DNA of 64,000 nucleotides from an uncultured candidatus Porisulfidus sp. (GCA_965215125.1 OZ244052.1:1344001-1408000), one strand, 5' to 3'. Positions 601 through 23,097 are shown, numbered from the stretch's first letter. Notes: generated by a model from the sequence alone, not told the origin. Made by a program: numbers and translations.

Positions 601-1155
601 ATGTATGCAACCCAACCACCGATGGACTCCGACAGACACCAACAAAATTATTTTGAATTGTTCGGCATAAAACCGACATTTCGTATTGACGAACAAACAA
701 TAGAAAAAACCTATTTACAGATGCAAGCACTATTCCACCCCGACCGCTTCGCAACGGCAAGCGCACAAGAGCGGCGCATCGCCGCACAAAAATCCGCCTA
801 TTTAAACGAAGCTCGCGATGTGCTGTTGGATGCTTGCGACCGCGCCGACTATCTATTGAAACTAGAAGGTTGCGCGGTCAACCCGGATGCCTCAATGTCG
901 GATAACGATTTTTTAATGGAGCAGATGGAATATAGAGAACGCCTGGAAGAAGCGGCAACGCAACAATCGAGCGAACCGGCGGTTGCTTTATGCGCCGAGA
1001 TTGAATGTCAAAGTACCCGAATAGATGAAGATTTTGAACAAGCCTACGACACGGCAATGTTTGATACCGCACAATCTCTGCTCGCCCGAATGCGATTTAT
1101 GAAAAAACTGAAAGCCGAAGCCAAAGCAATTATCGCTTCTAAAGAGAGTCTCTGA
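601..1155 (+). CDS. hscB: Co-chaperone HscB
   Basis: J-domain with HPD motif (NYFELFG...FHPDRF) and [10 protein letters not shown] motif; isc context. Confidence 0.95.
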
Positions 1156-5941: not shown

Positions 5942-6619
5942 TTAAACCATAAAAGCAATCAGCGCAGCACCCATAATGCCAAGCAAAGTAAAACCGAGGA
6001 GCATTATCCCCCCTAGAACCAACGGTAGCTTCCAGTTAACAGTTTGTTTGAGATCTTTCACCGTTGATACTAACGCTTGCAGTGTCCGCATCATTTCGGT
6101 TTGTGACATATATTCGCGTTCCAATGCGATTTTGATATCCTCCGGCGAAAGTTTATCTCGCCCTTGGTACGGGCATTCATAGAGTGTGGATGACGGATGA
6201 TGAAGGCGATGAAACTCAACTGTCAAAAATCTATCCTTGTGCGGCACGATGATTGGTTTACTAGATAAATTGGTTAATCCGATAATTAACCGCCCTTCAA
6301 AGCCGGGGTCAACTTGAGGTCCGACCGTGGCGATCAGACCTTTACGTGCGTAAGAACTAGTTAATCCAAAACGGGCTGTATGTTGCAAGTCCAGTGTCAG
6401 TTTTTCGTGTGTGAGCATAATAACAAAATCCCCCGGCGTGATTTCTATAAAGCCCGTTTTGGTTAAATCTAATACTTCCTTTTTAGCTGAACTGGCTGCT
6501 TGATCACCAACTCGCAGATCGTAAGATGCCGGCTGTAGTAGCTCTTCAGAAAAAGGTTCTATCACTATGGACGAACTGTTTTTACATGTATTAAGTATGT
6601 CTTCGTTGGAGAGAATCAT
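5942..6619 (-). CDS. dCTP deaminase/dUTPase-fold protein with C-terminal coiled coil and transmembrane helix
   Basis: MILSNEDI, QPASYDLRVG, SSYARKG and VDPGFEG motifs; hydrophobic tail LPLVLGGIMLLGFTLLGIMGAALIAFMV. Confidence 0.8.
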   Translation of the reverse strand: MILSNEDILNTCKNSSSIVIEPFSEELLQPASYDLRVGDQAASSAKKEVLDLTKTGFIEITPGDFVIMLTHEKLTLDLQHTARFGLTSSYARKGLIATVGPQVDPGFEGRLIIGLTNLSSKPIIVPHKDRFLTVEFHRLHHPSSTLYECPYQGRDKLSPEDIKIALEREYMSQTEMMRTLQALVSTVKDLKQTVNWKLPLVLGGIMLLGFTLLGIMGAALIAFMV

Positions 6620-7117: not shown

Positions 7118-8674
7118 ATGGCAAAAAGCGATACAAAAAAAATTGAAAATATAGAGGCGCAATTATTCAAAGTAGCCGATAAGCTACGCAAAAACATTGA
7201 TGCGGCGGAATACAAGCACATAGTACTCGGCTTGATATTTCTCAGATACATATCGGATTCTTTCGAGGCACAACATCGCGAATTAAACCGCAAATTAAAA
7301 GAAACCAAAGTAGAATTTCCACCCGACCCCGAAGATCCCGATGAATACGCGTCTAGGAATACCTTTTGGGTTCCTGAAGAGGCTCGCTGGTCGTACTTGC
7401 AAGATCGTGCCAAGCTATCGAGTATCGGCAAGGATTTAGACTCGGCAATGGAAAAGATAGAAAAAGAGAGTCCCAACCTCAAGGGTATTTTGCCTAAGGT
7501 CTATGCAAAACCGAACCTTGACAGAGCCACCCTAGGCGGTCTGATTGATTTAATCAGCGATATTGCTCTAGGTGAAGCAGCGCAGCAGTCAAGGGATATT
7601 CTAGGCAAAGTCTATGAGTATTTTTTGGGAGAGTTTGCTTTAGCGGAAGGCAAAAAGGGCGGTCAATTCTATACGCCTAAATCAATTGTGAAGCTCTTGG
7701 TTGAGATGATAGAACCTTATCACGGCAGAGTTTTTGACCCTTGCTGTGGTAGCGGCGGTATGTTTGTGATGAGCGAAAAATTTGTTGAAGAGCATAGTGG
7801 GCTAATCAAAGACATCTCTATTTACGGACAAGAGAGTAATCAAACAACCTATAGATTATGCCGAATGAATCTGGCAATTCGGAACATTGACGGTTCACAG
7901 GTGCAATGGAACAACGAAGGTTCATTTTTGAAAGATGCACACCCCGATTTGAAAGCCGACTTTATACTTGCCAATCCACCGTTTAACGATAGCGACTGGA
8001 GCGGCGACCTACTACAAGACGACCCGCGTTGGAAATACGGCACGCCGCCGGCGAGCAACGCTAACTTTGCATGGGTGCAACACTTCTTATATCACCTAAG
8101 CCCTAAAGGTGTGGCAGGCTTTGTTTTGTCCAAAGGCTCGCTAACTTCTAAAACTTCCGGCGAGGATGTTATCCGAAAAAACTTAATCGACGGCAGTTTT
8201 GTAGACTGCATCGTCAACCTGCCGACAAAATTATTCCTCAACACACAGATTCCCGCGTGCCTCTGGTTCATATCCAACAAACGATACGGCTTTAACGGCG
8301 ACAGAAGTCGTAGTGGAGAAATGCTATTTATTGACGCACGGCACTTGGGACATTTAATAAACAGACGTACCCGAGAATTTTCCGATGAAGACATCGGCAA
8401 GGTTTCCGACACCTACCACCAATGGAGAAAGACAGACGGTCAATACAAAGATGTTCCGGGTTTTTGTGCATCGGTAGCGATTGAGAGAGTAAAAGAATTG
8501 GATTATGTGCTCAGCCCGGGACGTTATGTAGGCACCGTAGAAATAGAGGACGACCATGACTTTGCCGAGCGTTTTGCAGAACTAAAAGCAGAGTTTGAAA
8601 CACAGGTGAGAGCAGAGGCTGGATTGAGCAAACGGATTTTAGAAAACTTAAACAAAATTGAATATGAGAAATAA
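7118..8674 (+). CDS. hsdM: Type I RM methyltransferase subunit M
   Basis: EGKKGGQFYTP, DPCCGSGGM (SAM motif), ANPPFN (catalytic motif). Confidence 0.97.
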   Translation: MAKSDTKKIENIEAQLFKVADKLRKNIDAAEYKHIVLGLIFLRYISDSFEAQHRELNRKLKETKVEFPPDPEDPDEYASRNTFWVPEEARWSYLQDRAKLSSIGKDLDSAMEKIEKESPNLKGILPKVYAKPNLDRATLGGLIDLISDIALGEAAQQSRDILGKVYEYFLGEFALAEGKKGGQFYTPKSIVKLLVEMIEPYHGRVFDPCCGSGGMFVMSEKFVEEHSGLIKDISIYGQESNQTTYRLCRMNLAIRNIDGSQVQWNNEGSFLKDAHPDLKADFILANPPFNDSDWSGDLLQDDPRWKYGTPPASNANFAWVQHFLYHLSPKGVAGFVLSKGSLTSKTSGEDVIRKNLIDGSFVDCIVNLPTKLFLNTQIPACLWFISNKRYGFNGDRSRSGEMLFIDARHLGHLINRRTREFSDEDIGKVSDTYHQWRKTDGQYKDVPGFCASVAIERVKELDYVLSPGRYVGTVEIEDDHDFAERFAELKAEFETQVRAEAGLSKRILENLNKIEYEK

Positions 8675-8698: not shown

Positions 8699-9106
8699 AT
8701 GGATAATGATTTGAGATGGAAACAACGTTTTCAAAATTTTGAAAAATCTTTTGAGGCTTTGCAGAGACGGATAAATCAATACGAGCAATATCCTAACGAC
8801 GAGGGTTCTCAAATGGCATTGTTATCATCTTTTATAATCATGTATGAACTCAGCTGGAAAGTACTCAAAGATTATTTACAAAACGAAGGTGTAGATGTGA
8901 ACAATAGTCCTAGAAATGTATTCAGAAATGCATTTCAAAACGAGCTGATATTCAAAATAGAGCCATGGATGGAGTCAATTGTCATAAGAAATGAAACGGT
9001 TCATACCTATCATGAGGATATTTTGCGAGAAGTCATTCAGTTTATTACCGAGACCTTTTATCCTATTGTTCGGGATCTGTATTTTCAACTGAAAAAAGAA
9101 CTATGA
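8699..9106 (+). CDS. HEPN protein (HI0074/NTase substrate-binding family), putative HepT-like RNase toxin
   Basis: RWKQRFQNF start, YELSWKVLKDYL, SPRNVFR, RNETVHTY (RX4HXY). Confidence 0.85.
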   Translation: MDNDLRWKQRFQNFEKSFEALQRRINQYEQYPNDEGSQMALLSSFIIMYELSWKVLKDYLQNEGVDVNNSPRNVFRNAFQNELIFKIEPWMESIVIRNETVHTYHEDILREVIQFITETFYPIVRDLYFQLKKEL

Positions 9107-10578
9107 AATACGGTTTGTCCGAAGAACAACTGGCAGAGATCTGTAATATCATTGGTTCATATCCCCAAATAGAAGCAGCGGTTATTTACGGTTCACGGGC
9201 TGACGGTGCTTATAAAGAAGCCTCGGATGTAGATATTGCTATCAAAGGAGGAAAAACCAACGAATCCCTTGCCGCAAAACTAAAATTCCATTTAGAGGAA
9301 GAAACCTACCTGCCTTTCTTTTTTGATGTCATCGCCTACAATGCCATCACCTCCACCGAACTAAAAAATCAAATCAAGGTTAAAGGCAAAACAATCTATC
9401 GGAGGGGGTGGCGTGAAGTTAAATTGGGAGATGTTGTAGAAATAATAGGCGGAGGAACACCCAGTACCAAAGAACCTAAATATTGGAATGGTGATATTCC
9501 TTGGTTAACACCCAGAGATTTATCTGATTTTAAGTGTAGATATATAGCTAAAGGTGAGAGAAATATATCCAAATTAGGATTACAAAATTCAAATGCAAAA
9601 TTACTTCCCGTAGGAGCGGTGCTTTTAACTACTAGAGCACCAGTTGGTTACTTGGCAATTGCTAGAGATGAGATTGCTGTCAATCAGGGATTTAAGGGAT
9701 TAATTGCAAACAGACATATTGATAATTTACTTTTATATTATCTGTTGAAACACAATGTTGATTATCTTAAAGCACATTCAAGTGGAACAACTTTTGGTGA
9801 GTTATCTAAAGCCTCCTTAACATCTATACCATTTTACATTCCCTCTCTTCCCGAACAAAAAGCCATTGCCGAAGTTTTGAGTAGCCTTGACGACAAAATA
9901 GATCTTTTACACCGACAAAACAAAACTCTTGAGAATATGGCACAAATCCTATTCCAAAAATGGTTTATTGAAGACGCAGACGATACATGGGAAGAGAAAC
10001 CTTTGGCTGATTTACTAGATTTTCTAGAAGGTCCAGGCATCCGTAATTGGCAATACACAGAAAAAGGGACACGCTTTATAAATATCAGATTAATACAAGA
10101 TGGCGAAATAGATGTTAAAAAATCAAACTTCATATCTGACGAAGAGGCAAATGGTAAATATAAACATTTTTCACTACAGGAAAGAGATATGGTTGTTTCT
10201 ACTTCTGGTACTTTAGGAAAAGTAGCAATCGTTCGTTCTTATCACTTGCCCTTGATGCTCAATACAAGCGTGATTAGATTTAGACCTAAAGACGGCATAA
10301 ACTATTCGTTCATGTACCAATACTTACAATCAAAGGAATTTAAGAATGAACTGGAAAGCCTAGGAAGTGGTAGCGTCCAGAAAAATTTTGGTCCAACTCA
10401 TTTGAAAATGATGAAGATGAGAATTCCTCCAGAAAGAGCTTTGAATGACTTCAGAAATCATGTTGATGACCTGTATTCAAAATTATTACAGAACTATTCT
10501 CACATTTATGAAATTGAGACCATTAAAAATACGCTTGCACCCAAATTAATGAGTGGTAAAGCGAGAGTAGTAAAATAA
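9103..10578 (+). CDS. hsdS: Minimal nucleotidyltransferase (MNT) fused to type I specificity subunit HsdS
   Basis: aa 1-~100 carry YGSRA-x-SDVDIA and FFDV; then WREVKLGDV, two TRDs, LPEQKAIAEVLSSLDDKI spacer and PKLMSGKARV end. Confidence 0.9.
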   Translation: MKYGLSEEQLAEICNIIGSYPQIEAAVIYGSRADGAYKEASDVDIAIKGGKTNESLAAKLKFHLEEETYLPFFFDVIAYNAITSTELKNQIKVKGKTIYRRGWREVKLGDVVEIIGGGTPSTKEPKYWNGDIPWLTPRDLSDFKCRYIAKGERNISKLGLQNSNAKLLPVGAVLLTTRAPVGYLAIARDEIAVNQGFKGLIANRHIDNLLLYYLLKHNVDYLKAHSSGTTFGELSKASLTSIPFYIPSLPEQKAIAEVLSSLDDKIDLLHRQNKTLENMAQILFQKWFIEDADDTWEEKPLADLLDFLEGPGIRNWQYTEKGTRFINIRLIQDGEIDVKKSNFISDEEANGKYKHFSLQERDMVVSTSGTLGKVAIVRSYHLPLMLNTSVIRFRPKDGINYSFMYQYLQSKEFKNELESLGSGSVQKNFGPTHLKMMKMRIPPERALNDFRNHVDDLYSKLLQNYSHIYEIETIKNTLAPKLMSGKARVVK

Positions 10579-10659
10579 TTCGTATAATATCTTGATGAAG
10601 TTTAGAGGTTATGAAAGGAATAAAATAAATCACGGTAAAACACATATTATTAAAGAACA

Positions 10660-12057
10660 ATGTCAGAAGAAATCATTCTAAAATCTCGTGAAGATAGAGA
10701 ATTCATTACTCTTACAAAAACCAAAGATAACAAATACATTTCAAAGTCTAGTCATGACCATCCGTGGGCTAGAGGTGAAATTGATAATGCCGTTTTGAGA
10801 TCTCGTATTGAACCCTGGTTAACGGCACTATTTCAATCTGAACATTTTTCTTTGTTGGTAGGTGCTGGATTGACTGAAGCAGTGCTTGGTTTGGCGCAAT
10901 CTGATGACAAACCTAAGATGCCGACACCACGGTTTAGTGAGTTTTCAGAACAGATTAACGATGCCTCAAAGGTTTCTGATGCAAACAATTTAACTACTAC
11001 CGATATTGAATTACAACTTCAAGTAGCCAACGAACTACTTATAGGATTAAAACATTTGCATCAGAGAAACGAGAATAACGAACAAATTTCTACGCTAGAA
11101 AACGAAATTACAGAGTTTCTCAAAGAATTTTCGGAATACATTTTGGAACTAGAAAATAAAATAGTAGAAGCTAAAAATAGGAAACAAGCTTTTAATTATT
11201 TAGTCAACTTCCTAACTAGTTTTGCTAGCCGTTCCGGCCCTAGAGACCGATTACAAATTTTCACCACAAATTACGACCGGGTTATTGAGATAGGTGCGGA
11301 AGTGGCAGGATTACGCTTACTTGACCGTTTTGTAGGCAGTGTTTCTCCTATTTTTAGGTCTTCAAGATTGAATGTTGATATGCACTACAATCCGCCCGGT
11401 ATACGGGGAGAACCTCGCTATTTAGAAGGTGTTATCCACTTCACTAAATTGCATGGTTCTATTGATTGGAAGCAGTTAAATAAAGATATTCGTCGGATAG
11501 GTTTGCCGTTTGGTGCAAAAAGCCTTGATCCCTATTTAGAAAACTCTAACAAATTAATGATCTATCCGAACGCCGCCAAAGATAAAGCAACAGTCGTTTA
11601 TCCTTATGTAGAAATGTTTAGAGATTTCGCTGCTTCTATATGTAGGCCGAACAATACATTGGTTACATACGGTTATAGTTATAACGATGACCATATCAAC
11701 CGAATAATAGAGGATATGCTTACTATACCGTCCACTCATTTAGTCATTATTTCGTATGGTAATAAAGATAAAAAGATTAAAAGCATGTATAAAGAGATTG
11801 GCAGACCAGCTCAAATCACACTTCTCATAGGGAAGGATTTAGCTGGATTAAAACCACTGGTGGATAATTATCTGCCTAAAGCGGCGATTGACCGTATTAC
11901 TTCTCGCATGGTGGATTTACTCAAATCGCGTTTAGAAACCGAAAGTAATTCTGAAATCGAAACTGCAAAGTTTATCAAAGAGACACCCGAGCCTAATTTA
12001 GATCGCAATGAAAGCGAAACATCAAATACTATAAATGACGACGACCTCGATTTTTGA
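10660..12057 (+). CDS. SIR2-family NADase of a Sir2-HerA (Nezha-like) defence system
   Basis: LLVGAG, FTTNYD, KLHGS, GYSYNDDHIN motifs; overlaps the herA start. Confidence 0.9.
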   Translation: MSEEIILKSREDREFITLTKTKDNKYISKSSHDHPWARGEIDNAVLRSRIEPWLTALFQSEHFSLLVGAGLTEAVLGLAQSDDKPKMPTPRFSEFSEQINDASKVSDANNLTTTDIELQLQVANELLIGLKHLHQRNENNEQISTLENEITEFLKEFSEYILELENKIVEAKNRKQAFNYLVNFLTSFASRSGPRDRLQIFTTNYDRVIEIGAEVAGLRLLDRFVGSVSPIFRSSRLNVDMHYNPPGIRGEPRYLEGVIHFTKLHGSIDWKQLNKDIRRIGLPFGAKSLDPYLENSNKLMIYPNAAKDKATVVYPYVEMFRDFAASICRPNNTLVTYGYSYNDDHINRIIEDMLTIPSTHLVIISYGNKDKKIKSMYKEIGRPAQITLLIGKDLAGLKPLVDNYLPKAAIDRITSRMVDLLKSRLETESNSEIETAKFIKETPEPNLDRNESETSNTINDDDLDF

Positions 12058-14239
12058 ACAATTAGAATCTTTATGCATTGGGACGGTAGAGTTTGTATCC
12101 CCAGATGAAATAAAAGTCTCCTTAAACCTAGAAGCTCCCGAATCACTAGCCTTAAATGCAGAAAATCCTATAACTTTTCCTAAAATTAACAACTATTTGC
12201 TTATTCCCAACAATGAGGGATATTTAGTCGGACAAATAGAATGGTTAGCAAGTGAACGAGTACCCTATACAAAACGCAAGGATATACAAAAGGATTCTGG
12301 ATTGGTTGACCTGCCGTATCCTTCAAGAAAAATGAGCCTTAATCCTGTTGGGATACTAAACGAGATAAGAGGCGAGGCAGATAAAGAGAAAAAGGATTTT
12401 GAATTTAAGCGTGGCGTTAATGTATTTCCATCGGTGGGAGATAATGTTTTACTTCCTACGCAAGAGCAACTTCATGCAATTATAGTATCGGGAGAAGATA
12501 AACAAGTAAGTATTGGCATTAGCCCACTTGTAGATGGTGCTGAAGTATGCGTTAATCCAGATCGTTTATTTGGTCGACACCTCGCTGTTTTAGGCAATAC
12601 AGGAAGTGGCAAATCCTGTTCTGTAGCAGGACTTATCCGCTGGTCATTGGAAGCAGTTTCCAAAAAGGAGAAAAAACCGAATGCTCGTTTTATCGTGTTA
12701 GATCCAAACGGAGAATATTCCAAAGCCTTTGGATCCGATAATAGCAATGATTCTGTAGTTAAAGCACGAATATTTCAGGCGGAACCGAATGGCAAAAATA
12801 AAAAATTACAAGTACCTCTTTGGTTTTTGAATAGTTCCGAATGGGCTGCTTTTGCTCAAGCTAGTGAAAAAATGCAAAAGCCTACACTTGTGGATGCACT
12901 TAGTAATGTGAGGAGTGGACGCACGGAGTTCACTAGGAATAAAGGTCATGAGATGAGAAATTTTCTTAGAACAATTGTTACAATTATCCATGCAGCAAAA
13001 AATTCTGGCGATCCCTGGGGGAAGTTTCCTAAACCTAAAGGCTTCCTTGAGAAGATAAAGAAATGGAATGAGGGAGGGTTAGAAGAAGATGGTGTATTTT
13101 CAGAGAATCAAAAGAAAGCAATGCATATGCTAAAAGAATATATTGATGGGCTTGTGGAAGAGCGTCCTATAGAAAAAAGTACTAATTATGATTTTAAAAA
13201 ACATCAAATAGACTGTCTCTTAGAATTAGCCCAGCAGGCTTATTATGCTTTTGGTGGTAAAGACGAAGATCTCTTAGCAATAGGTGCGGATATCCCAAAG
13301 CCATTTTTCAAAGAATCATTTATTAGAAGTGTTGAGGCAAGTGCGGAAATGTTAAAAGCAGTTGAATATGTAGAACCTTTGCTTATGCGTATTCGTGCCA
13401 TGCTAGGCGACCAAAGAATGAAATCAATTATGGATGACTCTGGTAGTAAAATTACACTTGCTCAATGGCTAAAAGATTATATTGGTGGAGATGAAAATGA
13501 AAGTAACATAACAATCATTGATTTGTCATTAATTCCTGCTGATGTAATCCATATTATTACTGCTGTTATTGCGAGGATGGTTTTTGAAGCCTTGCAACGT
13601 TATAGAAAAATTCATACCGAGAAGAAAACTTTACCGGTGGTTATGGTTATGGAAGAAGCCCATACATTCGTGAAACGCTATAAAGACGATATTGAAAATA
13701 GAGGCTCAGCTACTATTTGCTGTCAAATATTTGAAAAAATTGCCCGAGAAGGTCGTAAATTTGGATTAGGGTTAGTTATTTCATCACAACGTCCTTCTGA
13801 GTTGTCTCCTACTGTTCTTTCTCAATGCAATACGTTTTTACTCCATCGTATTAGCAACGACAGAGATCAAGATCTAGTAAAGCGATTCATTCCCGAAAGT
13901 CAAAAAGGAGTACTTAGAGAACTACCCGTACTTCCTTCGCAACAAGCAATTTTAATGGGTTGGGCTTCTGAACTTCCTTTGCTGGTAAAAATGCACTATT
14001 TGCCGGAAGAACAGCAACCACAATCGGATGATCCAGATCTTTGGAAAGTTTGGACTCGAGAAAATGACAGAAAAGTAGACTGGGACGAAATCGCTGATGA
14101 TTGGGTCAAGCCGGAAGAGGAAACCAATTATGAGGCAGAAAGCACCAATCAAACAGAAAATTTTGATGAAAAGAAAATTGATTCTGAGACAGACAGTACT
14201 AATCAAATAAAAAGTCCTGATGATGACATCCCATTTTAA
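12035..14239 (+). CDS. HerA/FtsK-family ATPase (DUF87) of the Sir2-HerA system
   Basis: HLAVLGNTGSGKS (Walker A), EEAH (Walker B), IAREGRKFG...SQRPSEL. Confidence 0.92.
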   Translation: MTTTSIFEQLESLCIGTVEFVSPDEIKVSLNLEAPESLALNAENPITFPKINNYLLIPNNEGYLVGQIEWLASERVPYTKRKDIQKDSGLVDLPYPSRKMSLNPVGILNEIRGEADKEKKDFEFKRGVNVFPSVGDNVLLPTQEQLHAIIVSGEDKQVSIGISPLVDGAEVCVNPDRLFGRHLAVLGNTGSGKSCSVAGLIRWSLEAVSKKEKKPNARFIVLDPNGEYSKAFGSDNSNDSVVKARIFQAEPNGKNKKLQVPLWFLNSSEWAAFAQASEKMQKPTLVDALSNVRSGRTEFTRNKGHEMRNFLRTIVTIIHAAKNSGDPWGKFPKPKGFLEKIKKWNEGGLEEDGVFSENQKKAMHMLKEYIDGLVEERPIEKSTNYDFKKHQIDCLLELAQQAYYAFGGKDEDLLAIGADIPKPFFKESFIRSVEASAEMLKAVEYVEPLLMRIRAMLGDQRMKSIMDDSGSKITLAQWLKDYIGGDENESNITIIDLSLIPADVIHIITAVIARMVFEALQRYRKIHTEKKTLPVVMVMEEAHTFVKRYKDDIENRGSATICCQIFEKIAREGRKFGLGLVISSQRPSELSPTVLSQCNTFLLHRISNDRDQDLVKRFIPESQKGVLRELPVLPSQQAILMGWASELPLLVKMHYLPEEQQPQSDDPDLWKVWTRENDRKVDWDEIADDWVKPEEETNYEAESTNQTENFDEKKIDSETDSTNQIKSPDDDIPF

Positions 14240-14315
14240 GGCAACATAATTGTTCAGCGTTAACAGAATGATTTTTTTACGAAAGCAAACGATTTCAAAC
14301 GCCAAGCGATAAATC

Positions 14316-14376
14316 ATGCTTTCCCTCTACGAATCCGGAACTGATGAACGGTGAGGCACGGGTAAAACAGCCTTAA
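14316..14376 (+). pseudogene. Chimeric scar: first codons of hsdR joined to the last codons of an hsdS
   Basis: 14315-14337 is identical to 17448-17470 (hsdR start); 14335-14376 encodes PELMNGEARVKQP*, compared with the HsdS end PKLMSGKARVVK*. Confidence 0.8.
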
Positions 14377-14516
14377 TGCCGGATAAGAAAACACCTACAA
14401 AATAAGGTGTAAATTTATCTTATCAAAGTGTCGTTTAATCTATAATGTGCTTTTACCTATTGCTTTTAGCACCGAATATAATTTCAATACTCCGGAAGTT
14501 TTTAATATACAGAAAA

Positions 14517-15410
14517 ATGGATGACAAGGGAAAATATCTAGCCAGAATACTCTTTAAGCTAAAAATACACGAAACCGAAGGAAAATCTTTTGAAGATTTA
14601 TTTGCTCACATTATGAACTATTCAGAACCGGATTTTCAAAGGATAAAACCATGGGGCAGTATTGGTGATCGCAAAAATGATGGTTATATTCCTTCACAAG
14701 GAATATATTTTCAGGTCTATGCTCCGGAAGACATACGCAAATCTCTCGGTAATGCAATTAAGAAGCTGGAATCCGATTTTGCCGGTCTTTTAGAAAAGTG
14801 GAAAGAAATCAAAGCATATTATTTTGTTATCAACGATAAATATCATGGAGTGCCGGCACATCTTTTACAAGCCATACAAAAAATTGCCAATGATCATGAG
14901 ATAAAAGCAGAGGTTTGGGGTGTTAATAAACTGGAGGATTTAGTCTTCTCTTCTTTAGATGATGACCAAATATTAAGTATTACCGGTTCATTTCCTAATC
15001 CTGAAGAAATACACTTAGACTATTCTGTTTTAGACGAAGTGATAACACATCTGATGAAAATAGATATTAGCGACATTCAGGATGGTGACATTAAATATCC
15101 GAATTGGGGTGAGAAGATCGAATTTAATGGTTTATCGGAGGCAGTGAAAAGATACTTGGAGCAGGGTTTTTTACATGTTGCCGAACTGGATGAATGTCTT
15201 GACAACAATAGTAATTTTTTTGCGGAACAGGTCAAGGATCGGGTCAGAGAAATTTATATCAATAAAGCCAGAGAGTTTTCGGGAGACAAATTATTTATGA
15301 AAATAATGAATACTATTAGTCATAGGCAGGAACAACTATTCCAATTTGCAGCGATTATAATAATGGCTAAGTATTTTGAAATTTGTGATATTTTTAAGAA
15401 GCCTGAATGA
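14517..15410 (+). CDS. Lamassu/ABC-three-component effector (LmuA-like), restriction-endonuclease-like N-terminus
   Basis: FEDLF...GDRKNDGY...FQVYAP nuclease-like motif; C-terminal KYFEICDIF; start 14517 preferred over 14445. Confidence 0.75.
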   Translation: MDDKGKYLARILFKLKIHETEGKSFEDLFAHIMNYSEPDFQRIKPWGSIGDRKNDGYIPSQGIYFQVYAPEDIRKSLGNAIKKLESDFAGLLEKWKEIKAYYFVINDKYHGVPAHLLQAIQKIANDHEIKAEVWGVNKLEDLVFSSLDDDQILSITGSFPNPEEIHLDYSVLDEVITHLMKIDISDIQDGDIKYPNWGEKIEFNGLSEAVKRYLEQGFLHVAELDECLDNNSNFFAEQVKDRVREIYINKAREFSGDKLFMKIMNTISHRQEQLFQFAAIIIMAKYFEICDIFKKPE

Positions 15411-15649
15411 TATTACCTACAAAAAATATTAATTTTTCCAAGTCCCTATTAGGGTTCGGTTCCTATGTGTTGTCACTGCTTGATAGTTCCCAAAGTATTG
15501 ATGATTTATGGCAACAATATCGCAAGGACTATAAGAAGAAGAGATATCCGGGAAAACATACCTTTGATAATTTGATTATGACATTGATTTTTTTATATGT
15601 TGCAGGTTGTATTCTTGAACAGGACGGGCTTATAAAAAGATGCGTTTAA
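15407..15649 (+). CDS. ABC-three-component middle component (LmuC-like)
   Basis: 80 aa MILPTK...SLLGFG...FDNLIMTLIFLY; overlaps both neighbours. Confidence 0.75.
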   Translation: MILPTKNINFSKSLLGFGSYVLSLLDSSQSIDDLWQQYRKDYKKKRYPGKHTFDNLIMTLIFLYVAGCILEQDGLIKRCV

Positions 15650-17379
15650 TTTCAATATCGGCAAACCAAGATAGCTTCAAAAAAATAGACTTTAATCCAT
15701 CGGGTGCTAGCTTTATTATTGCCGAACAGAAAGACCCCGGCCAGAGCGATAAAAAGAAAACCTACAATGGTGTCGGTAAATCTCTTTTAGTTGCGTTAAT
15801 TGATTTTTGCCTGGGAGCCGGTGCGAGTAGTGGCATCACTAAAACATTAAGTTCGTGTGATGACTTAAAAGATTGGAAGTTTACCTTGAAGATAAGTATA
15901 AAGGGTAAGCCCTACATTATTACAAGATCGGTTGATAATCATAAATCAATTGAGTTGAACGATGAAACTTTGAAACTGACAGAATTTCACCAACGAATGC
16001 AAGAGCTATGTTTTGATATAGAGGAAGGTTTCAAGTTCTTGACTTTTCGTTCTTTGTTACCGTTTTTCCTGAGACCGTCAAAAACTTCATATACAAATTA
16101 TGATAAACCTCAGGCATCTTACACACCGTATCAAAAACTACTTTACAACGCTTTTTTATTAGGCTTGGATGTCTTTTTAGCCGATAAGAAAAAAGTACTA
16201 AAAGACGATTTAACGACACGAAGAAATAGCTTACGAAACACAGAAAAGGATCCCATCATAAGAGGATTTTTCGGTCACAATCAAAATGTGAGTGATGATT
16301 ATCTATTACTTCTTAGGGATATAGAGGAAAAAATTAAAAAATTGGAGGAAGATCTAAAAAATTACAGGGTTGCCAAGGATTATTATCAGCGTCAGGAAGA
16401 AGCGGATCAGTTGAAAAAATTGATTGATGAGAAGCAAAAACAAATCTATCTACATAAAAGTACCATAAAGCGGATCGATCAGAGTTTACGGTTTGAAGTT
16501 GATATAGATCAAAAGGACATTAAAAAGATATACGAGGAATCTAAAAAGGTATTTCAAGTTGAAGTAAAAAAGAGGTTATCGGATTTAGAAAAATTTTATA
16601 CGGATTTGAAGACTAATCGTACAAAAAGATTAGCGGAGCAAAAACGGTCAATTATGAACGAGTTAGAAAAGTTAGAAGAAGAGGCGGCAAAATTACAAGC
16701 ACAATTTGACGAAACCTTAGCATTTCTCGGGTCACATCGCGCATTGGATGTTTTTGTTGAAACAAACAAACAATTAAGTGAGCTAAAACAAAAAAAAGAA
16801 AAGTTGGTTTCTTATCAAGAATTTCAGAAAAAATACAAAAGAGAAATAGAAAAATTAAAACAAAGTTTAAGGGACGAAAACGGCAAAACAACCGAATACT
16901 TGGAAATAAACGAATCTTTTTTAGAATCTATTAATAACGATTTTAGGACTTTGGCAAAGAAATTTTACCCCGATGAACTAGCCGGTATCACGATTGTCAA
17001 TAACGAAGGGGAAAATCAAATTAGATATAACATAGAAGCAAAAATACAATCGGATTCTTCCGATGGAATTAATAGTGTCAAATTGTTTTGTTATGACTTA
17101 TGTGTGCTATTCGGTGCTAACAATCATCATATAGATTTTATTTTTCATGACAGCAGGTTATTCAGCGATATTGATGAAACACATTGTGAGGTGTTGTTTG
17201 ATATTGTTCGCGATAAATTTAAGGATAAGCAATATATAGCGAGTATTAATCAGAAGGACTTAATAACCTTAGCTGAACCGGTTCAGGCTTTTATAAGACA
17301 AAACACGGTTTGTAAACTAAACGATGAATCCGAAGAAGGTAAGTTATTAGGTAGGCGGGTAGAATTGGAATACGACTAG
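15640..17379 (+). CDS. SMC-like ABC ATPase, DUF2326 family (LmuB-like)
   Basis: NGVGKS Walker A, long coiled coil, SSDG signature, FIFHDS Walker B. Confidence 0.85.
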   Translation: MRLISISANQDSFKKIDFNPSGASFIIAEQKDPGQSDKKKTYNGVGKSLLVALIDFCLGAGASSGITKTLSSCDDLKDWKFTLKISIKGKPYIITRSVDNHKSIELNDETLKLTEFHQRMQELCFDIEEGFKFLTFRSLLPFFLRPSKTSYTNYDKPQASYTPYQKLLYNAFLLGLDVFLADKKKVLKDDLTTRRNSLRNTEKDPIIRGFFGHNQNVSDDYLLLLRDIEEKIKKLEEDLKNYRVAKDYYQRQEEADQLKKLIDEKQKQIYLHKSTIKRIDQSLRFEVDIDQKDIKKIYEESKKVFQVEVKKRLSDLEKFYTDLKTNRTKRLAEQKRSIMNELEKLEEEAAKLQAQFDETLAFLGSHRALDVFVETNKQLSELKQKKEKLVSYQEFQKKYKREIEKLKQSLRDENGKTTEYLEINESFLESINNDFRTLAKKFYPDELAGITIVNNEGENQIRYNIEAKIQSDSSDGINSVKLFCYDLCVLFGANNHHIDFIFHDSRLFSDIDETHCEVLFDIVRDKFKDKQYIASINQKDLITLAEPVQAFIRQNTVCKLNDESEEGKLLGRRVELEYD

Positions 17380-17448
17380 TGTCGTAGTTTGTTCTCTATC
17401 GGTATATGTTTGCCCTAAATACAGCCTCAATCTTCACAATCAACCCCC

Positions 17449-20400
17449 ATGCTTTCCCTCTACGAATCCGAAGTTGAAGAGTGGGTGATAGAGCTTCTGC
17501 AGGAGCAGGGGTATAGCTATCTTTCACCGGAGGAGCAGGAGCGGGCGCGTGGTGGTTTTTCGGAGGTTGTTTTCCGAGAGCATCTAAAGGATGCCGTCAC
17601 TCGCCTTAATCCCGATATTCCCGAAGATGAGCAGGAATATGCGCTACGAGAAGTTTTAGGATTATCCAGTCAGAGTATGATTGAAAACAACGAGACTTTT
17701 CATCGGTACTTGATCGAAGGTTTCTCGTTGGAATACCAAAGAGAAGGCGACACGGTCGGTGGTAAGGTGATGTTGGTTGATTTTGAAAACCCGATGAACA
17801 ACGATCTCATCGTTTGCAATCAGTATACCGTCGTAGGGAATAAAAATAAGACAAAGATACGCCCCGATGTGGTTTTATTAATCAACGGTTTACCTTTGGT
17901 TGTGATTGAACTCAAAAACCCTACCGATGAGAAGGCCACGGTTAAAAAAGCATATACTCAGTTACAGAATTATAAAAAGGCTGCGCCGAGTTTGTTTTAC
18001 TACAACGGGGTTTTGGTTGCGTCGGACGGTCTGGATGCTAGAGCGGGTTCGCTCACGGCGGGCATGGATCGTTTTATGGCATGGAAAACCGTTGACGGTG
18101 TCAGGGAGGATAAAAGCACGACACCACAGGTAGAGACGCTTATTAAAGGGATGCTTCGTCCCGATGTGCTGCTTAACCTTATAAAGCAGTTTACGGTTTT
18201 TGAAAAATCGCAAGCCGAAACCAGCAAAAAAATTGCTGCATACCATCAGTATTACGCAGTGTGCAAGGCAGTGGAGTCAACCATTCGGGCAACTGCGACA
18301 GGAGTTTCCGAAGCAGAGAAGGAAGCACCTGAGGACTCCGATTTGCCGATGGTTAACAGTCAACCGGCGGGTGATAGAAAAGTCGGTGTTGTTTGGCACA
18401 CGCAAGGCAGCGGCAAATCGCTTTCTATGGTTTTTTATGCCGGCAAGTTGATGGGAGATGCGCGTATGAAGAATCCGACCTTGCTCGTGCTTACCGATAG
18501 AAATGATCTTGACGACCAGTTGTTCGGGGCATTTGCGGCGAGTCGGCAATTACTAATAGAAGAACCGGTGCAAGCGCAATCTCGCGATCACTTAAAAAAA
18601 CTTTTGCAAACACAAGGCGGTGGCATCGTTTTTACAACGATTCAAAAATTTTCTCCCGAAGAGGATAGAGAGCAATTCGAGTTACTTTCGGGGCGTGAAA
18701 ACATCGTTGTTATTGCCGATGAGGCGCATCGCTCTCAATACGGCTTCAAAGCGATAACCGGCATAAAAGATAATCGGGTATCTATACGCTATGGTTTTGC
18801 TAAGTATCTGCGGGATGCCTTACCGAACGCCTCTTTTATCGGTTTTACCGGCACACCGATTGAGAGAGCGGACATTTCAACACGGGCAATTTTCGGTAAT
18901 TACATTGACATTTATGATATTCAACAATCGGTGGAAGATGGGGCAACTATTCCCATTTACTATGCATCGCGTCTAGCGCATGTGCATCTGAAGCCGGAGG
19001 AAATGCAAAAGCTGGATGATGAGGTTGAACAGATTACCGAAGATCAGGAGTTCACCGCTACGGAGAAAGCGAAGGCAAAATGGGCGCAAATGGAAGCGAT
19101 CGTAGGTAATGAGGAACGGCTGAAAGTAGTTGCACAAGACATCGTTGAGCATTTTGAGGAACGACAAAAAGCACTTGAAGGCAAAGGCATCATTGTTGCA
19201 ATGAGCCGGCGTATTGCCGTTGCGCTATACGACATGATTACTAAGTTTCGTCCGGATTGGCACGATACCGATCTTGAGAAGGGGCAGATAAAGGTCATTA
19301 TGACTTCTAATTCAAGCGACCCGTCAAGTTATCAGCCGCATCGTACAACCAAGAGGCAAAAGAAAGAATTGGGGGATCGGTTTAAGGATCCCACGGATTC
19401 TTTGAAGCTGGTTATCGTGCGAGATATGTGGTTGACCGGTTTTGATGCACCGTCTTTACATACGATGTATATAGACAAACCGATGCGTGGGCATAATCTT
19501 ATGCAGGCGATTGCGCGCGTCAACAGGGTCTATAAAAATAAACCCGGCGGACTTGTGGTGGATTACATCGGAATTGCTCACGACTTAAAGCAGGCACTTG
19601 CGATTTATACGAATAGTGGTGGGCGAGGGCAACCGGCATTGGAACAGGAAACCGCAATTGCAACGATGATAGAAAAATACGAAATCGTTGTGCAGTTGTT
19701 CAATGGTTTTGACTACAAGCGATACTTCGCTGCCGATACTGGAGAAAAACTGACCATCATTTTGGAGGCACAGGAGCATATACTCAATTTGGACGATGGC
19801 AAGAAAAGGTATATAGAACAACTCTCGGTACTAGCCAAAACATTTGCGCTTTCGGTGCCTAGCGACGAGGCAGCGAAAATCAGAGATGAGCTAGGCTTTT
19901 TTGAAGCGGTGAAAGCTAGACTAATAAAACTAGAATCGTCGGATAACGGGAAAAGCGATGCCGAAATAGAAACAGCAATTAAACAAATCGTTGATAAAGC
20001 GATTATGACCGACGAGGTTATCGACATTTTTGATGCAGCGGGAATCAAGAAGCCCGACATTTCTATTCTCTCCGACGAGTTTCTGGAGGAAGTGCGAGGC
20101 ATGCAACATAAAAATCTAGCCATAGAACTTTTGAAAAAAATTCTTAACGATGAAATCAAAGCCAGGATTAAAAAGAATTTTATTCAAGGTAGGAAACTTT
20201 CGGAGATGTTGGATGCTGTGATTAAGCGGTATCGGAATAATTTGTTAACCACGGCACAAGTCATTGAAGAGCTTGTAAGCCTTGCCAAAGAGATAACAGA
20301 TGCCGATAAACGAGGTGAGAGATATGGGCTTTCGCAAGAGGAATTGGCGTTTTATGATGCGCTTGCCGATAATGACAGTGCAAAAAGGGTGCTGGGAGAT

Positions 20401-20619
20401 GACACACTGCGAGATATTGCAAGAATTTTGGTTGAAAAGGTGAAGAAGGGAGCTACTATTGATTGGACTATTAGAGAAAGCGTGCAAGCGGGGCTTCGTG
20501 TTGCCGTGAAAGGCGTGCTGCGTAAATACGGTTATCCGCCCGACAAACAAGAGACTGCAACACAAAATGTTTTGAAGCAAGCAGAGAGTTTTGCCGACGA
20601 ATGGGCTTCCGATCTGTAG
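17449..20619 (+). CDS. hsdR: Type I restriction subunit R
   Basis: PD...IELK nuclease motif, WHTQGSGKS, DEAHRSQY, MWLTGFDAP, QAIARVNR. Confidence 0.97.
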   Translation: MLSLYESEVEEWVIELLQEQGYSYLSPEEQERARGGFSEVVFREHLKDAVTRLNPDIPEDEQEYALREVLGLSSQSMIENNETFHRYLIEGFSLEYQREGDTVGGKVMLVDFENPMNNDLIVCNQYTVVGNKNKTKIRPDVVLLINGLPLVVIELKNPTDEKATVKKAYTQLQNYKKAAPSLFYYNGVLVASDGLDARAGSLTAGMDRFMAWKTVDGVREDKSTTPQVETLIKGMLRPDVLLNLIKQFTVFEKSQAETSKKIAAYHQYYAVCKAVESTIRATATGVSEAEKEAPEDSDLPMVNSQPAGDRKVGVVWHTQGSGKSLSMVFYAGKLMGDARMKNPTLLVLTDRNDLDDQLFGAFAASRQLLIEEPVQAQSRDHLKKLLQTQGGGIVFTTIQKFSPEEDREQFELLSGRENIVVIADEAHRSQYGFKAITGIKDNRVSIRYGFAKYLRDALPNASFIGFTGTPIERADISTRAIFGNYIDIYDIQQSVEDGATIPIYYASRLAHVHLKPEEMQKLDDEVEQITEDQEFTATEKAKAKWAQMEAIVGNEERLKVVAQDIVEHFEERQKALEGKGIIVAMSRRIAVALYDMITKFRPDWHDTDLEKGQIKVIMTSNSSDPSSYQPHRTTKRQKKELGDRFKDPTDSLKLVIVRDMWLTGFDAPSLHTMYIDKPMRGHNLMQAIARVNRVYKNKPGGLVVDYIGIAHDLKQALAIYTNSGGRGQPALEQETAIATMIEKYEIVVQLFNGFDYKRYFAADTGEKLTIILEAQEHILNLDDGKKRYIEQLSVLAKTFALSVPSDEAAKIRDELGFFEAVKARLIKLESSDNGKSDAEIETAIKQIVDKAIMTDEVIDIFDAAGIKKPDISILSDEFLEEVRGMQHKNLAIELLKKILNDEIKARIKKNFIQGRKLSEMLDAVIKRYRNNLLTTAQVIEELVSLAKEITDADKRGERYGLSQEELAFYDALADNDSAKRVLGDDTLRDIARILVEKVKKGATIDWTIRESVQAGLRVAVKGVLRKYGYPPDKQETATQNVLKQAESFADEWASDL

Positions 20620-20660: not shown

Positions 20661-22187
20661 TTATTCAGAGGTATACAAGATATTGTTATTCTCTAGATAT
20701 TCCAAAAACTCTACAATGGTTTTGGGAGAAATGAGCAGATTATCTGTTTGTTTCAGGAAGTTAATCTGGCGTATAGTGTCCTTAAAAATACTGGGTGCAA
20801 CAAAGTAACACATTGATTTTTCTACTTTCGTGTCAAACTTTTCTAAGTGTCTAGCAATCGGCCACACTTCCGCCATAGTTTGGGTTCTCCCCTCGGACAT
20901 TGTTACCTCAATTAAGACTCCGTTTACATCTTCAAAGCATTCAATGTCCCCGGTGTCCCTGGAGCCTTTTGCGGTTGATGTCGGTATACCTTCATCATCA
21001 ATAGGATAATTTGGTATTACTTGTATATTCGGGAATTTTGATTTCACTGCCAATGCCGTCAAAAACTCAAACCGTATTGGACCTGATAGATATTTCAAAG
21101 TTTCATGTTTCGTTAATTTTCTACTTGATAGTATTAGCATTTCTTTTTTGATTGTCTCCCAAGTATGTATATCAACCCACTTTTTCAAGAATTCATCGCG
21201 CTCGGAAGCTGAAACAGTTTTTGGTTTAGACGAAATTAAGTTTTTATCGATAGTGGAGATATACTCAAAATAACTTTCTTCTGTATCGTATTTTTTATAC
21301 TCGGAATAGTTTTTCAGAATATAATTTATTTTTACTTGCTCGTTTTTGTTGATATCGATAAACCTTCCTCCACCGCGCAAAGAGATAAGGCCGGTTAATC
21401 GCATTTTTCGGATAAACTCGTCGGGATAATCTACTATGATAGATTTATCGTTCCGTCTAATATCTCTGCCTTCCATGATTTCATTCCGACAAATTCTCAT
21501 AATTATTTCCCTGCTCGGAGAATATCGAAAGTCTTGCCGTAATCTTTTAATTCTCCGATATAACGTCTCTGCATCGTTATTTTTCCAATAAATTACCAGT
21601 GGTAATTCTAGTTTTGAAATGCCCGCGCCATTGTATTCATCGTCGGCGTTTAATTTAGTGATTACTCGGAGCAATAAGACCAAAGGTACATTTTCATTCA
21701 ATACCCTCCGAAAAGGACTATTTGCTTGGTATTTCACAAAAGCATTCAAGAAAGCCTGTTGCTCAAATTCAGGATATTTGTTGTCAACAAGTTTTAATCC
21801 TACCTTTGAGAATCTTATTTTCTTTCCGGTTCGGTAAAATACAAATCCTAGTTCTTTAGAAAATTTGAACCAAGTATCAAAACGAGATGGCCAGCCTTTA
21901 CTAAACCCTGCTTCTTTATGATTTTGCGGATTGTCTCGTAGTATCTTTTTAACTTCTTTATCGGACAGAGGGTTATTTTCTCTCATTTTTTGTTTTATAT
22001 TTTGGGGTAATCTAATCGGTTGGTATAAACCAATTCTGATAATTTCCCCGACAATTTCTTCTGCTAATTTGTCGTCAAGAATTTTTCCGTTATAGTCCTT
22101 TAAGACATTGAGAAAGTCTTTCAATCGCTCGGGGCTTCTAATCGTTGTTGTGAACAATAATGGTTTGTATTCGGCTTGTCTCGGCAT
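20661..22187 (-). CDS. AlwI-family type IIS restriction endonuclease
   Basis: FTTTIRSPER start; GDIECF...IEVTM...Q...E-x-x-PIARH catalytic region; follows two adenine MTases. Confidence 0.8.
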   Translation of the reverse strand: MPRQAEYKPLLFTTTIRSPERLKDFLNVLKDYNGKILDDKLAEEIVGEIIRIGLYQPIRLPQNIKQKMRENNPLSDKEVKKILRDNPQNHKEAGFSKGWPSRFDTWFKFSKELGFVFYRTGKKIRFSKVGLKLVDNKYPEFEQQAFLNAFVKYQANSPFRRVLNENVPLVLLLRVITKLNADDEYNGAGISKLELPLVIYWKNNDAETLYRRIKRLRQDFRYSPSREIIMRICRNEIMEGRDIRRNDKSIIVDYPDEFIRKMRLTGLISLRGGGRFIDINKNEQVKINYILKNYSEYKKYDTEESYFEYISTIDKNLISSKPKTVSASERDEFLKKWVDIHTWETIKKEMLILSSRKLTKHETLKYLSGPIRFEFLTALAVKSKFPNIQVIPNYPIDDEGIPTSTAKGSRDTGDIECFEDVNGVLIEVTMSEGRTQTMAEVWPIARHLEKFDTKVEKSMCYFVAPSIFKDTIRQINFLKQTDNLLISPKTIVEFLEYLENNNILYTSE

Positions 22188-22191
22188 AATT

Positions 22192-23097
22192 TCAATAGTT
22201 GGTAATCAAGACTTCTTTAATTTTTTTCCGGGTATTGTTGTGATAGTTGATGTAATTGCTTTGAATATCATGGACTTGGTATTTTTTCATCCATTCAATC
22301 AGTAAATCATTTTTTCTTCCGTTGTAATGAGTAATATTTGACAAAGCAAATTTAATGCTCTTTCTATTTAATGTATCAATTAAATCAAGCAAGTTTTTTT
22401 CTTCTTTTGAGTTCCATAACTTATTGTATTCGCTTGAAGCGATAAGGTAAGGAGGGTCAAGGTAGACGAAGTCATTTTTGGTAAATTCTTTTTTCTCAAA
22501 AAATCGCCTAAAGTCTTTAGTCGAGAACTGTATTTTTTTATTTTTTACAAAATCAAAATAATTATTAAGTGCTTTTACAACATTTTTATTAAAATCGACA
22601 TTTCCAACAGGCAAATTGAATGAACCACCGCCATTGAAACGTAACATCCTATTAAATCCGTATATCAATAGCACATACAAAATAAGAGGATCATTTTTTC
22701 GATTTTTGTTCACATCGTTTTTTAATTTTTCATATCCTTCTTTGTTGAATTTAGAATAATAAGTCTTCTTAAACTCTTTTTTTAGAGCATCGGGCACAAT
22801 ATCTTTTTTGTAGGAATGAGATAATTTGTATTTGAAGACGATTTTTTCAACTTTGTCAAAAAACTTTCCCGTATTTTCTGCATTCGAAATTAAGTATTCA
22901 TGAATATTAACAAGGTGTTTATTTATATCATTCAAAAAATACTTCTTTGCGTTGATATTCAGGAAAACCGTACCACCACCAACAAATAATTCATAAAAGT
23001 TTTCTATTTTCTCGGGAAACAAATTTAGCAGTTGTTCCATTAGCCGATATTTATCCCCGACATAAAAGAGAGGTGATCTATTTATTTTCTGTTCCAT
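22192..23097 (-). CDS. Dam/D12-class N6-adenine DNA methyltransferase
   Basis: SPLFYVGDK, ELFVGGG, FNLPVG, YLDPPY, EVLITNY. Confidence 0.92.
   Translation of the reverse strand: MEQKINRSPLFYVGDKYRLMEQLLNLFPEKIENFYELFVGGGTVFLNINAKKYFLNDINKHLVNIHEYLISNAENTGKFFDKVEKIVFKYKLSHSYKKDIVPDALKKEFKKTYYSKFNKEGYEKLKNDVNKNRKNDPLILYVLLIYGFNRMLRFNGGGSFNLPVGNVDFNKNVVKALNNYFDFVKNKKIQFSTKDFRRFFEKKEFTKNDFVYLDPPYLIASSEYNKLWNSKEEKNLLDLIDTLNRKSIKFALSNITHYNGRKNDLLIEWMKKYQVHDIQSNYINYHNNTRKKIKEVLITNY

Follow-up and report, generated by a model that had tools for sequence, protein, structure and literature searches.

A 62-nt hsdR–hsdS element between two defence cassettes as the probable joint of two alleles of a type I restriction-modification locus

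Results

Organization of the type I locus and its embedded cassettes

The window (the whole 64,000-nt stretch analysed here, from genome G000) holds a type I restriction-modification (RM) locus on the plus strand, in the order hsdM, HepT-like gene, hsdS, SIR2, HerA, a short scar, an ABC-3C triad and hsdR. The hsdM gene (7118..8674) encodes a type I methyltransferase (Pfam N6_Mtase, E 1.3e-106, and HsdM_N, E 5e-26; PADLOC MTase_I, E 5e-182). The gap between hsdM and hsdS is occupied by a HepT-like/NTase-substrate-binding gene (8699..9106, plus strand; Pfam NTase_sub_bind, E 5.6e-31, and HepT-like, E 1.4e-6), and hsdS itself (9103..10578) carries an in-frame N-terminal MNT (Polbeta) domain at residues 12–101, with Methylase_S beginning at residue 102. 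The hsdR gene (17449..20619) is intact and encodes 1056 aa, matching Pfam HSDR_N, SWI2_SNF2, T1R_D3-like and T1RH-like_C. It is preceded by a leader (17428..17447, plus strand) that is common to the three ABC-3C-bearing alleles and is also copied into the scar of the related genome G003. The components of a type I system are present in full, namely HsdM, an HsdS with two target recognition domains (TRDs; two stretches of Methylase_S) and a full-length HsdR with nuclease and SF2 motor, and tblastn shows the genome to hold just one type I locus of this family.

Two cassettes lie between hsdS and hsdR, with all genes pointing the same way as the hsd genes, an arrangement that corresponds to embedding in the sense of Payne et al. 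2024. Cassette 1 (10660..14239, plus strand) consists of adjacent SIR2 (10660-12057) and HerA (12035-14239) genes that cover nearly the full PADLOC profiles (E 8e-149 and 8e-242, respectively), and is a putative SIR2-HerA system. Cassette 2 (14445..17379, plus strand) is a predicted ABC-3C operon composed of a CTD10 effector (14445-15410), a small MC6 middle component (15407-15649) and a DUF2326 SMC-like ABC ATPase (15640-17379), assigned by Pfam CTD10, MC6 and DUF2326. A first-pass annotation of the window, made from the DNA alone, had identified hsdM, hsdS, SIR2, HerA and hsdR correctly and had called the triad Lamassu. The best PADLOC matches of the triad are to the candidate system PDC-M68A/B (E 9e-12 and 7e-82), those to LmuA (E 3.9e-4) and LmuB (E 2.4e-8) being weak, so that "Lamassu-like" is the safe name.

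The locus is flanked by katG, a dCTP-deaminase-like gene, an AlwI-like restriction gene and two D12 methylases, and then by housekeeping genes. The dCTP-deaminase-like (DCD) gene, just upstream of hsdM (5942-6619, minus strand), could be another of the island's defence genes. Directly after hsdR, on the minus strand (20661-24901), an AlwI-like endonuclease, a D12 adenine methylase and a D12 methylase/RadC-like JAB fusion make up a second RM module.

The HepT-like gene overlaps the MNT-hsdS fusion by 4 nt (window 8699-10578). The same pairing of MNT-hsdS fusion and HepT occurs in L012 (4273-6146), L013 (5383-7271), L011 (10087-11957, minus strand) and L015 (1456-3398). All four congeners carry the fusion, and tblastn covered residues 1–489 in the distant metagenomic loci L078 and L082-L085. 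The antitoxin-like MNT domain on the specificity subunit could tie the HepT RNase to the RM complex's state. A literature search returned no description of an MNT-hsdS fusion.

A scar of hsdR and hsdS ends between the cassettes

A 62-nt element (14315..14376, plus strand) separates HerA from the ABC-3C triad; in it the start of hsdR is joined to the final 42 nt of a foreign hsdS allele. Its first part (14315..14337) comprises the nucleotide upstream of hsdR and the first 22 nt of the gene, including the ATG, and is identical in 23 of 23 positions to 17448-17470, as the first-pass annotation had reported. Allowing up to three mismatches, this 23-mer matched twice in the window and never in 100 dinucleotide-preserving shuffles; exact copies number two in the whole 2.22-Mb genome, both at the hsd locus. 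The second part (14335..14376) shares the nucleotides CCG with the hsdR-head copy and comprises 13 codons and a stop of an hsdS allele (hsdS') that is intact in the related genome G001. Read from the shared CCG at 14335, it encodes PELMNGEARVKQP followed by the stop.

The first-pass annotation had taken this peptide for a diverged HsdS C-terminus. On an HMM built from 45 HsdS C-termini of the window's type I family it scored 13.9 bits, compared with 11.1 bits for the top reversed-sequence control. This places it above chance by a margin that is modest when the peptide score is taken alone; the DNA-level comparison with G001, in which the remnant is colinear with the inside of an intact hsdS ORF, is decisive for the assignment. 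That the match arose by chance, from a transposon target duplication or as an assembly artefact is a negligible prospect: such explanations could draw on nothing but the short peptide match, and they are opposed by the shuffles, by the colinear parental allele in G001, by cassette ends that lack inverted repeats and by the recovery of the whole stretch on single contigs in independent runs.

Immediately upstream of the hsdR-head copy, a 19-nt remnant (14296..14314, plus strand) resembles the OLD-family gene of G004 at its 3' end, where that gene abuts hsdR (16/19 nt, counted from the two sequences). Across the remnant and into the scar, blastn aligned window 14296-14351 with L013 (G004) 9214-9269 at 85.7% identity. 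The match to the OLD 3' end indicates that a G004-type flank accompanied the part of the scar on its hsdR side. Directly 3' of the hsdS' stop lies a hairpin (14391..14410) that is identical in G003 and degenerate in G001, and that is terminator-like by consensus scan only. Because a promoter scan gave 36 promoter-like sites against a shuffle mean of 36.3, and a terminator scan likewise performed no better than shuffles, we claim no regulatory role for the surroundings of the scar. The retained hsdR ATG opens a 12-codon ORF, and we found no evidence that the scar has a function of its own.

Parental forms of the joint survive in sister species

A DNA search over 60 relatives recovered the locus in three of four same-genus genomes (G001, G003 and G004). 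The window is colinear with G001 from 14334 to 20619 (L012 6101-12386; 86.6% identity over 6298 nt). The beginning of this block (L012 6101-6146) corresponds in G001 to the last part of an hsdS ORF that is intact and 489 aa long, and the gene order there is hsdM, HepT, intact hsdS, the same ABC-3C triad and hsdR, that is, a single cassette. Homology between G001 and the window stops at 9999, at the start of the hsdS TRD2, and resumes at 14334, exactly at the joint and inside the G001 hsdS ORF, 46 nt before its end.

The left part of the window finds its counterpart in G004. The TRD2 and tail of the window's hsdS are of the G004 type, and homology extends to 10561, within the hsdS tail and right behind the conserved PKLMSG codons. 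G004 combines this window-type hsdS with a single 649-aa gene for an OLD-family ATPase-TOPRIM protein, followed by hsdR from the position corresponding to window 17448. G003 has a G001-type hsdS, a 381-aa DUF4917/PDC-S21 gene, a scar with the same breakpoint as the window's, the ABC-3C triad and hsdR; its copy of the hsdR head is longer (46/48 over −25..+22). The slot between hsdS and hsdR thus has four contents in four species of one genus, two of which (G001 and G004) are single-cassette alleles, and the two scarred alleles differ upstream of the scar, with SIR2-HerA in G000 and DUF4917 in G003.

As its main check, the first-pass annotation had proposed to look for single-cassette alleles of either cargo in related genomes. 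The hsdS-ABC3C-hsdR form exists in G001, joined by the hsdS-OLD-hsdR form of G004, and an hsdS-SIR2/HerA-hsdR form was not found among 16 HerA-related loci. SIR2-HerA lies inside type I loci in 4 of these 16, always with other cargo or in a different gene order. Searches with the ABC-3C ATPase across the class gave two weak matches (25–27% identity) in 399 other genomes, with no usable context. The DNA of the scar and ABC-3C cassette had no match in a plasmid collection, and the ATPase protein none in a phage collection.

Segment identities of 95–97% between G000 and G003 and 93–95% between G001 and G004, against about 86–89% between the pairs, show G000 and G003, and likewise G001 and G004, to be sisters. 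The ABC-3C cassette follows this species pattern, being 94.9% identical to that of G003 and about 86% (86.1%) identical to that of G001, and therefore looks vertically inherited in G000 and G003. The cassette was probably already resident in the G000/G003 ancestor, and the scar is probably older than the split of the two species.

Two further features of the congener loci were noted. An alignment of the four hsdS genes revealed a common TRD1 and two TRD2 types (window 10000-10578), each represented once per sister pair (G000 with G004; G003 with G001) at 86–89% identity, a pattern suggestive of an RM-specificity polymorphism that is long-lived, trans-species and linked to the cargo. In G003, an insertion of about 1.9 kb (L011 about 1136-3028; window 20056-20094) splits hsdR near its 3' end and encodes a 401-aa HTH protein with a weak integrase-core match and a 155-aa ORF, with about 39 nt of hsdR on both sides; restriction has probably been lost in this species.

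The joint lies at a six-nucleotide microhomology

At the joint, hsdR reads GAATCCGAAG and the hsdS tail of G001 reads CTTCCGAAAC, with TCCGAA common to both. In hsdR this hexamer lies at codons 6–7, and in the hsdS tail it belongs to the conserved LLPK codons. A comparison of the hsdR-head region (−70..+150) with the hsdS' tail region (−150..+84) yielded 12 shared 6-mers and no shared 7-mer. The presence of TCCGAA at the joint fits an illegitimate, microhomology-guided joining. The arrangement, a short-microhomology joint near homologous hsdR and hsdM/hsdS flanks, corresponds in form to a product of homology-facilitated illegitimate recombination (HFIR), an established process in which one end of incoming DNA joins by homology and the other illegitimately (PMC3240628). 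We consider it probable that the 62-nt element is a functionless fossil joint of two cargo-bearing type I RM alleles, formed by a homologous and a microhomology crossover.

Most likely, a single joining event in the ancestor shared by G000 and G003 gave rise to the scar. Two independent scars, with TCCGAA as a recurrent preferred joint, are an unlikely alternative that takes its support from the immediate flanks: the DNA upstream of the 23-mer is OLD-like in G000 and leader-like in G003, and the base at the joint is G in the one and C in the other. Since TCCGAA is only one of 12 equally long microhomologies, however, two independent events at the same site are improbable; moreover, the two species are sisters with a 94.9% identical cassette, and joints in other loci fall at many positions (see below). 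The base directly after the joint CCG (window 14338; L012 6106) is A in both parental types, so that a single origin needs two changes at one site. This difference could hint at independent events, or it could be a trace left by the joining.

Similar remnants recur across the type I family

We surveyed the hsdS-hsdR gap more widely by searching metagenome contigs with the first 400 HsdR residues, which returned 73 loci. Once the window, G001, G003, G004 and two HerA-related loci were added to these, 51 loci held both an hsdS end and an hsdR start. The two genes abut in 8 of these (gap ≤23 nt), and in the other 43 they are separated by a cargo gap of 195 nt to 10.6 kb. HMMs of the HsdS tail and the HsdR head were run against these 43 gaps (114,028 nt), translated in six frames, with a threshold above the best control score of 11.1 bits. 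Remnants exceeding every control match were present in 8/43 loci, or in 6/41 when the two discovery cases (the window and G003) are set aside; these counts refer to one type I family in which some loci are near-duplicates, L078 and L085 sharing one remnant. The expectation of the first-pass annotation that similar junctions occur at other type I loci was borne out by these six further loci of the same family.

The scores ranged from 70.6 bits for the head remnant of L060, through 49.3 (tail) and 39.5 (head) in L085, 49.3 for the tail in L069, 43.3 and 12.9 for two tails in L015, 38.8 in L078 and 22.8 in L084, to 14.6 in G003 and 13.9 in the window. A borderline remnant in L052 (11.8 bits) was dropped, as DNA alignment gave it no support. 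All remnants lie on the hsd strand and between ORFs. Their breakpoints vary (+22, +72 and +102 in hsdR; −40 to −108 in hsdS), and their DNA identity to the resident gene end extends from 67/68 (L069) to 100/131.

Colinearity of L085 with L080, L082 and L083 extends across a DUF488 cassette and exactly 72 nt into hsdR; beyond this 72-nt head come a further cassette, made up of a 111-aa ORF and a gene for an M78 peptidase-like protein, and then a complete hsdR. L085 thereby replicates the structure in the window independently. L078 and L085 have two upstream modules in common, with a tail remnant between them, indicating that modules recombine in different combinations. The closest HerA relatives of the window, L014 and L015 (hsdM 73% and hsdR 61–64% identical), place SIR2-HerA within the same type I family among other cargo, and in L015 hsdS-tail remnants stand immediately before SIR2 and after HerA. 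Across the survey, the cargo resembles defence genes, its families including OLD, PIN, Abi_C, GmrSD, RelA/SpoT with Shedu, reverse transcriptase, McrBC, DUF488, TIR-like and others, and 79 of 87 non-redundant cargo ORFs of at least 90 aa are on the hsd strand. Separately, the slot of L094 (3101-8731) and L097 (3089-8635) holds a single ORF of about 1850–1876 aa without a Pfam match at E ≤ 1e-4, followed by a PNP_UDP_1 phosphorylase-like gene.

The remnants also bear on whether the joint began as a tandem duplication, in which unequal sister exchange at TCCGAA would have doubled a unit of hsdS tail, ABC-3C, leader and hsdR head, the left copy being replaced later. The G003 scar retains about 25 nt of the leader found after ABC-3C, as a duplicated unit would, although this leader could equally be the common hsdR leader of several alleles. 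No second ABC-3C remnant lies upstream of the scar in G000 or G003, and tail-only remnants such as that of L069 (−64..+3, 67/68, flanking a 189-aa ORF) need no duplication of a whole unit. We regard this history as improbable, with about one chance in a handful, and favour the direct joining of two alleles.

Excision, circles and site-specific recombination

The stretch occurs in five sequencing runs from two studies, four of which were examined as assembled Logan contigs, which drop rare variants. Contigs from these four runs, representing both studies, bridge the scar and the hsdR start in the stacked form. No contig carried a 14337-to-17471 deletion or a circle joint, within the limit that rare events are invisible in such assemblies. 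In run X4, a low-depth contig (depth 12 versus about 464; window 9999/17428-17470) carries a G003-type scar, which points to a close relative with another stacked allele in the same sample.

These data speak to the proposal of the first-pass annotation that the 23-bp repeats let the second cassette excise. As a working switch, the direct repeats flanking ABC-3C (23 nt in the window, 48 nt in G003) would delete the cassette, leave hsdR intact and restore hsdS-SIR2/HerA-hsdR. The contigs of the four runs contain no such product, the only skipping contig being that of the low-depth relative with the G003-type scar, and the predicted single-cassette SIR2/HerA allele is absent from the relatives and HerA-related loci searched. 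We consider such a switch very unlikely.

A circular intermediate was also suggested in the first-pass annotation. A cassette excised through TCCGAA in the hsdS tail and hsdR head, which is a direct repeat flanking the slot in the parental alleles, would yield a circle with a chimeric scar that could integrate homologously into another allele; the predicted product is identical to the one observed. G003 indeed looks like a clean insertion of a new tail, DUF4917, leader and hsdR 1–22 at TCCG|AAA in an otherwise G001-like hsdS. The reciprocal deletion, however, would wreck both hsdS and hsdR, neither a circle junction nor a deletion product was seen in the contigs of the four runs, and other loci vary in breakpoint and are often tail-only or head-only, contrary to what the model predicts. 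We therefore judge a circle unlikely, on a par with independent scars. One-ended homologous integration, unequal sister exchange and circle integration all lead to the same product and are indistinguishable by end state.

The first-pass annotation had described the locus as an integrase-free, integron-like array. No recombinase was detected among the ORFs of at least 110 aa scanned between 3.6 and 36 kb of the window, and the three tyrosine recombinase (Phage_integrase) genes of the genome, at 259, 856 and 1826 kb, are at least 470 kb from the locus (about 1351-1365 kb). A general repeat scan of 10579-10659, 14240-14444 and 17380-17448 found no attC-type inverted repeats. The variation of breakpoints between loci and the absence of a nearby recombinase argue against a site-specific system. 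The modular organization and the lack of an integrase nearby therefore stand, and the likeness to integrons is one of analogy only. As in integrons, same-strand cassettes are ordered, promoter-proximal and combined modularly, exemplified by the four modules of L085 that are shared piecewise with L078, L080, L082 and L083. Unlike integrons, the array has no IntI near it, no attC-like repeats were found, breakpoints vary, and the boundary sequences are pieces of the flanking genes instead of recombination sites.

Discussion

The G001 and G004 alleles, the exact joint and the recurrence of such junctions support the core of the first-pass annotation, namely that the hsdS-hsdR gap is an exchangeable slot in which allelic cassettes were joined. 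In the history that we propose, two alleles of one type I RM locus would have held different defence cargo in this gap. A crossover in the hsd flank common to both, combined with an illegitimate one at the 6-nt TCCGAA, would have left hsdS and hsdR both intact, with hsdR head 1–22 fused to the hsdS' tail between the cassettes. The recipient would have been a resident hsdS'-ABC3C-hsdR allele of the G001 kind, and the part upstream of the scar would have been swapped later, giving DUF4917 in G003 and, in G000, a G004-type left part including TRD2, in which SIR2-HerA replaced the OLD gene except for its last 19 nt. With a single origin, this later exchange would have had its right-hand crossover inside the short hsdR-head copy. 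That step counts against our reading, as a crossover through the scar has only 23–48 nt to work with, and so does the lack of a single-cassette SIR2-HerA allele among the loci searched. The joint, its parental forms, the breakpoint common to G000 and G003 and the comparable remnants at other loci are observed; from them we infer the order of events, the route by which DNA entered and a later role of the scar as an anchor.

With regard to entry, the host genome encodes ComEC and DprA, as do most control genomes, and four DUS/USS motifs (Neisseria- and Pasteurellaceae-type) are not enriched in it. Its commonest 10–12-mers look like REP-type dispersed repeats, several GC-rich 12-mers being present in 95–126 copies.

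In more general terms, the conserved hsdS tail and hsdR head may act as homology handles in this type I family. A cassette would be replaced without trace by a pair of homologous crossovers, the first side lying in the hsdS tail or upstream of it and the other in hsdR; the end of the window–G004 homology within the hsdS tail, just after PKLMSG, fits such a replacement. One homologous and one illegitimate crossover would instead add a cassette and duplicate the gene end on the illegitimate side. A broader reading, to which we give slightly less than even weight, is that these handles are generic and make the hsdS-hsdR gap an integrase-free array, the scar copies serving as secondary handles for swaps of single cassettes. 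Under selection for RM function, additions would survive only if both genes were regenerated, and so each would leave a copied gene end. Internal copies acting as secondary handles would also explain why G000 and G003 have the same scar and different upstream cargo.

P2/P4 satellite hotspots carry defence cargo between conserved flanking genes and turn it over by recombination in these anchors. A comparable arrangement of variable defence cargo between conserved anchors has been described for the E. coli immigration control region (ICR; PMC12707154). The locus studied here resembles both in placing variable defence cargo between conserved anchors. It differs in that the anchors are two genes of one enzyme, in that the cargo splits an operon-like unit, and in that additions regenerate the anchor genes by duplicating their ends. 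The resemblance to HFIR lies in the hsd flank, which would be the anchor, and in the 6-nt microhomology at the other joint; HFIR was defined experimentally with transformed or conjugated DNA, whereas our case is known from its product alone.

Defence genes embedded in type I RM systems are well documented, among them PrrC (EcoprrI), DarTG2 (EPEC RRDM island), TgvAB (V. cholerae VPI-2) and the Campylobacter rlo genes (Miller et al. 2005, as cited in PMC5183652 and PMC11411939). The hsdS-hsdR site has been termed "a potential recombination hotspot" (PMC12255303), and the "guilt-by-embedding" survey of Payne et al. 2024 reports thousands of embedded cassette combinations and says of what underlies embedding that it "remains to be explored"; its main text nowhere uses the words recombination, remnant or hsdR. 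The cargo families at our locus are defence-like, as in these published systems (PrrC, DarTG2, TgvAB, rlo and those of Payne et al.). Unlike them, as far as the portions of those texts covered go, it displays hsd-derived remnants, a joint with parental alleles and stacking by duplication of gene ends. None of these three features was found in the literature searched. Embedding and the hotspot idea are already known; boundary scars and modular stacking did not turn up in that literature.

A joint whose two parental forms survive in sister species, together with comparable remnants in about one-fifth of cargo-bearing loci of the family, offers a concrete and testable mechanism, in which a homologous and a microhomology crossover add cargo and duplicate a gene end. 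This mechanism explains how the RM enzyme stays intact while its operon gathers cargo. Remnants of hsd ends are easily recognized in sequence and can mark where cassettes meet and in what order they were acquired. If the hsdS tail and hsdR head are indeed generic handles, a scan for such remnants would delimit embedded cassettes genome-wide and give the order in which they were acquired. The similar leftovers in other bacteria suggest that this is a usual way in which such loci collect defences.
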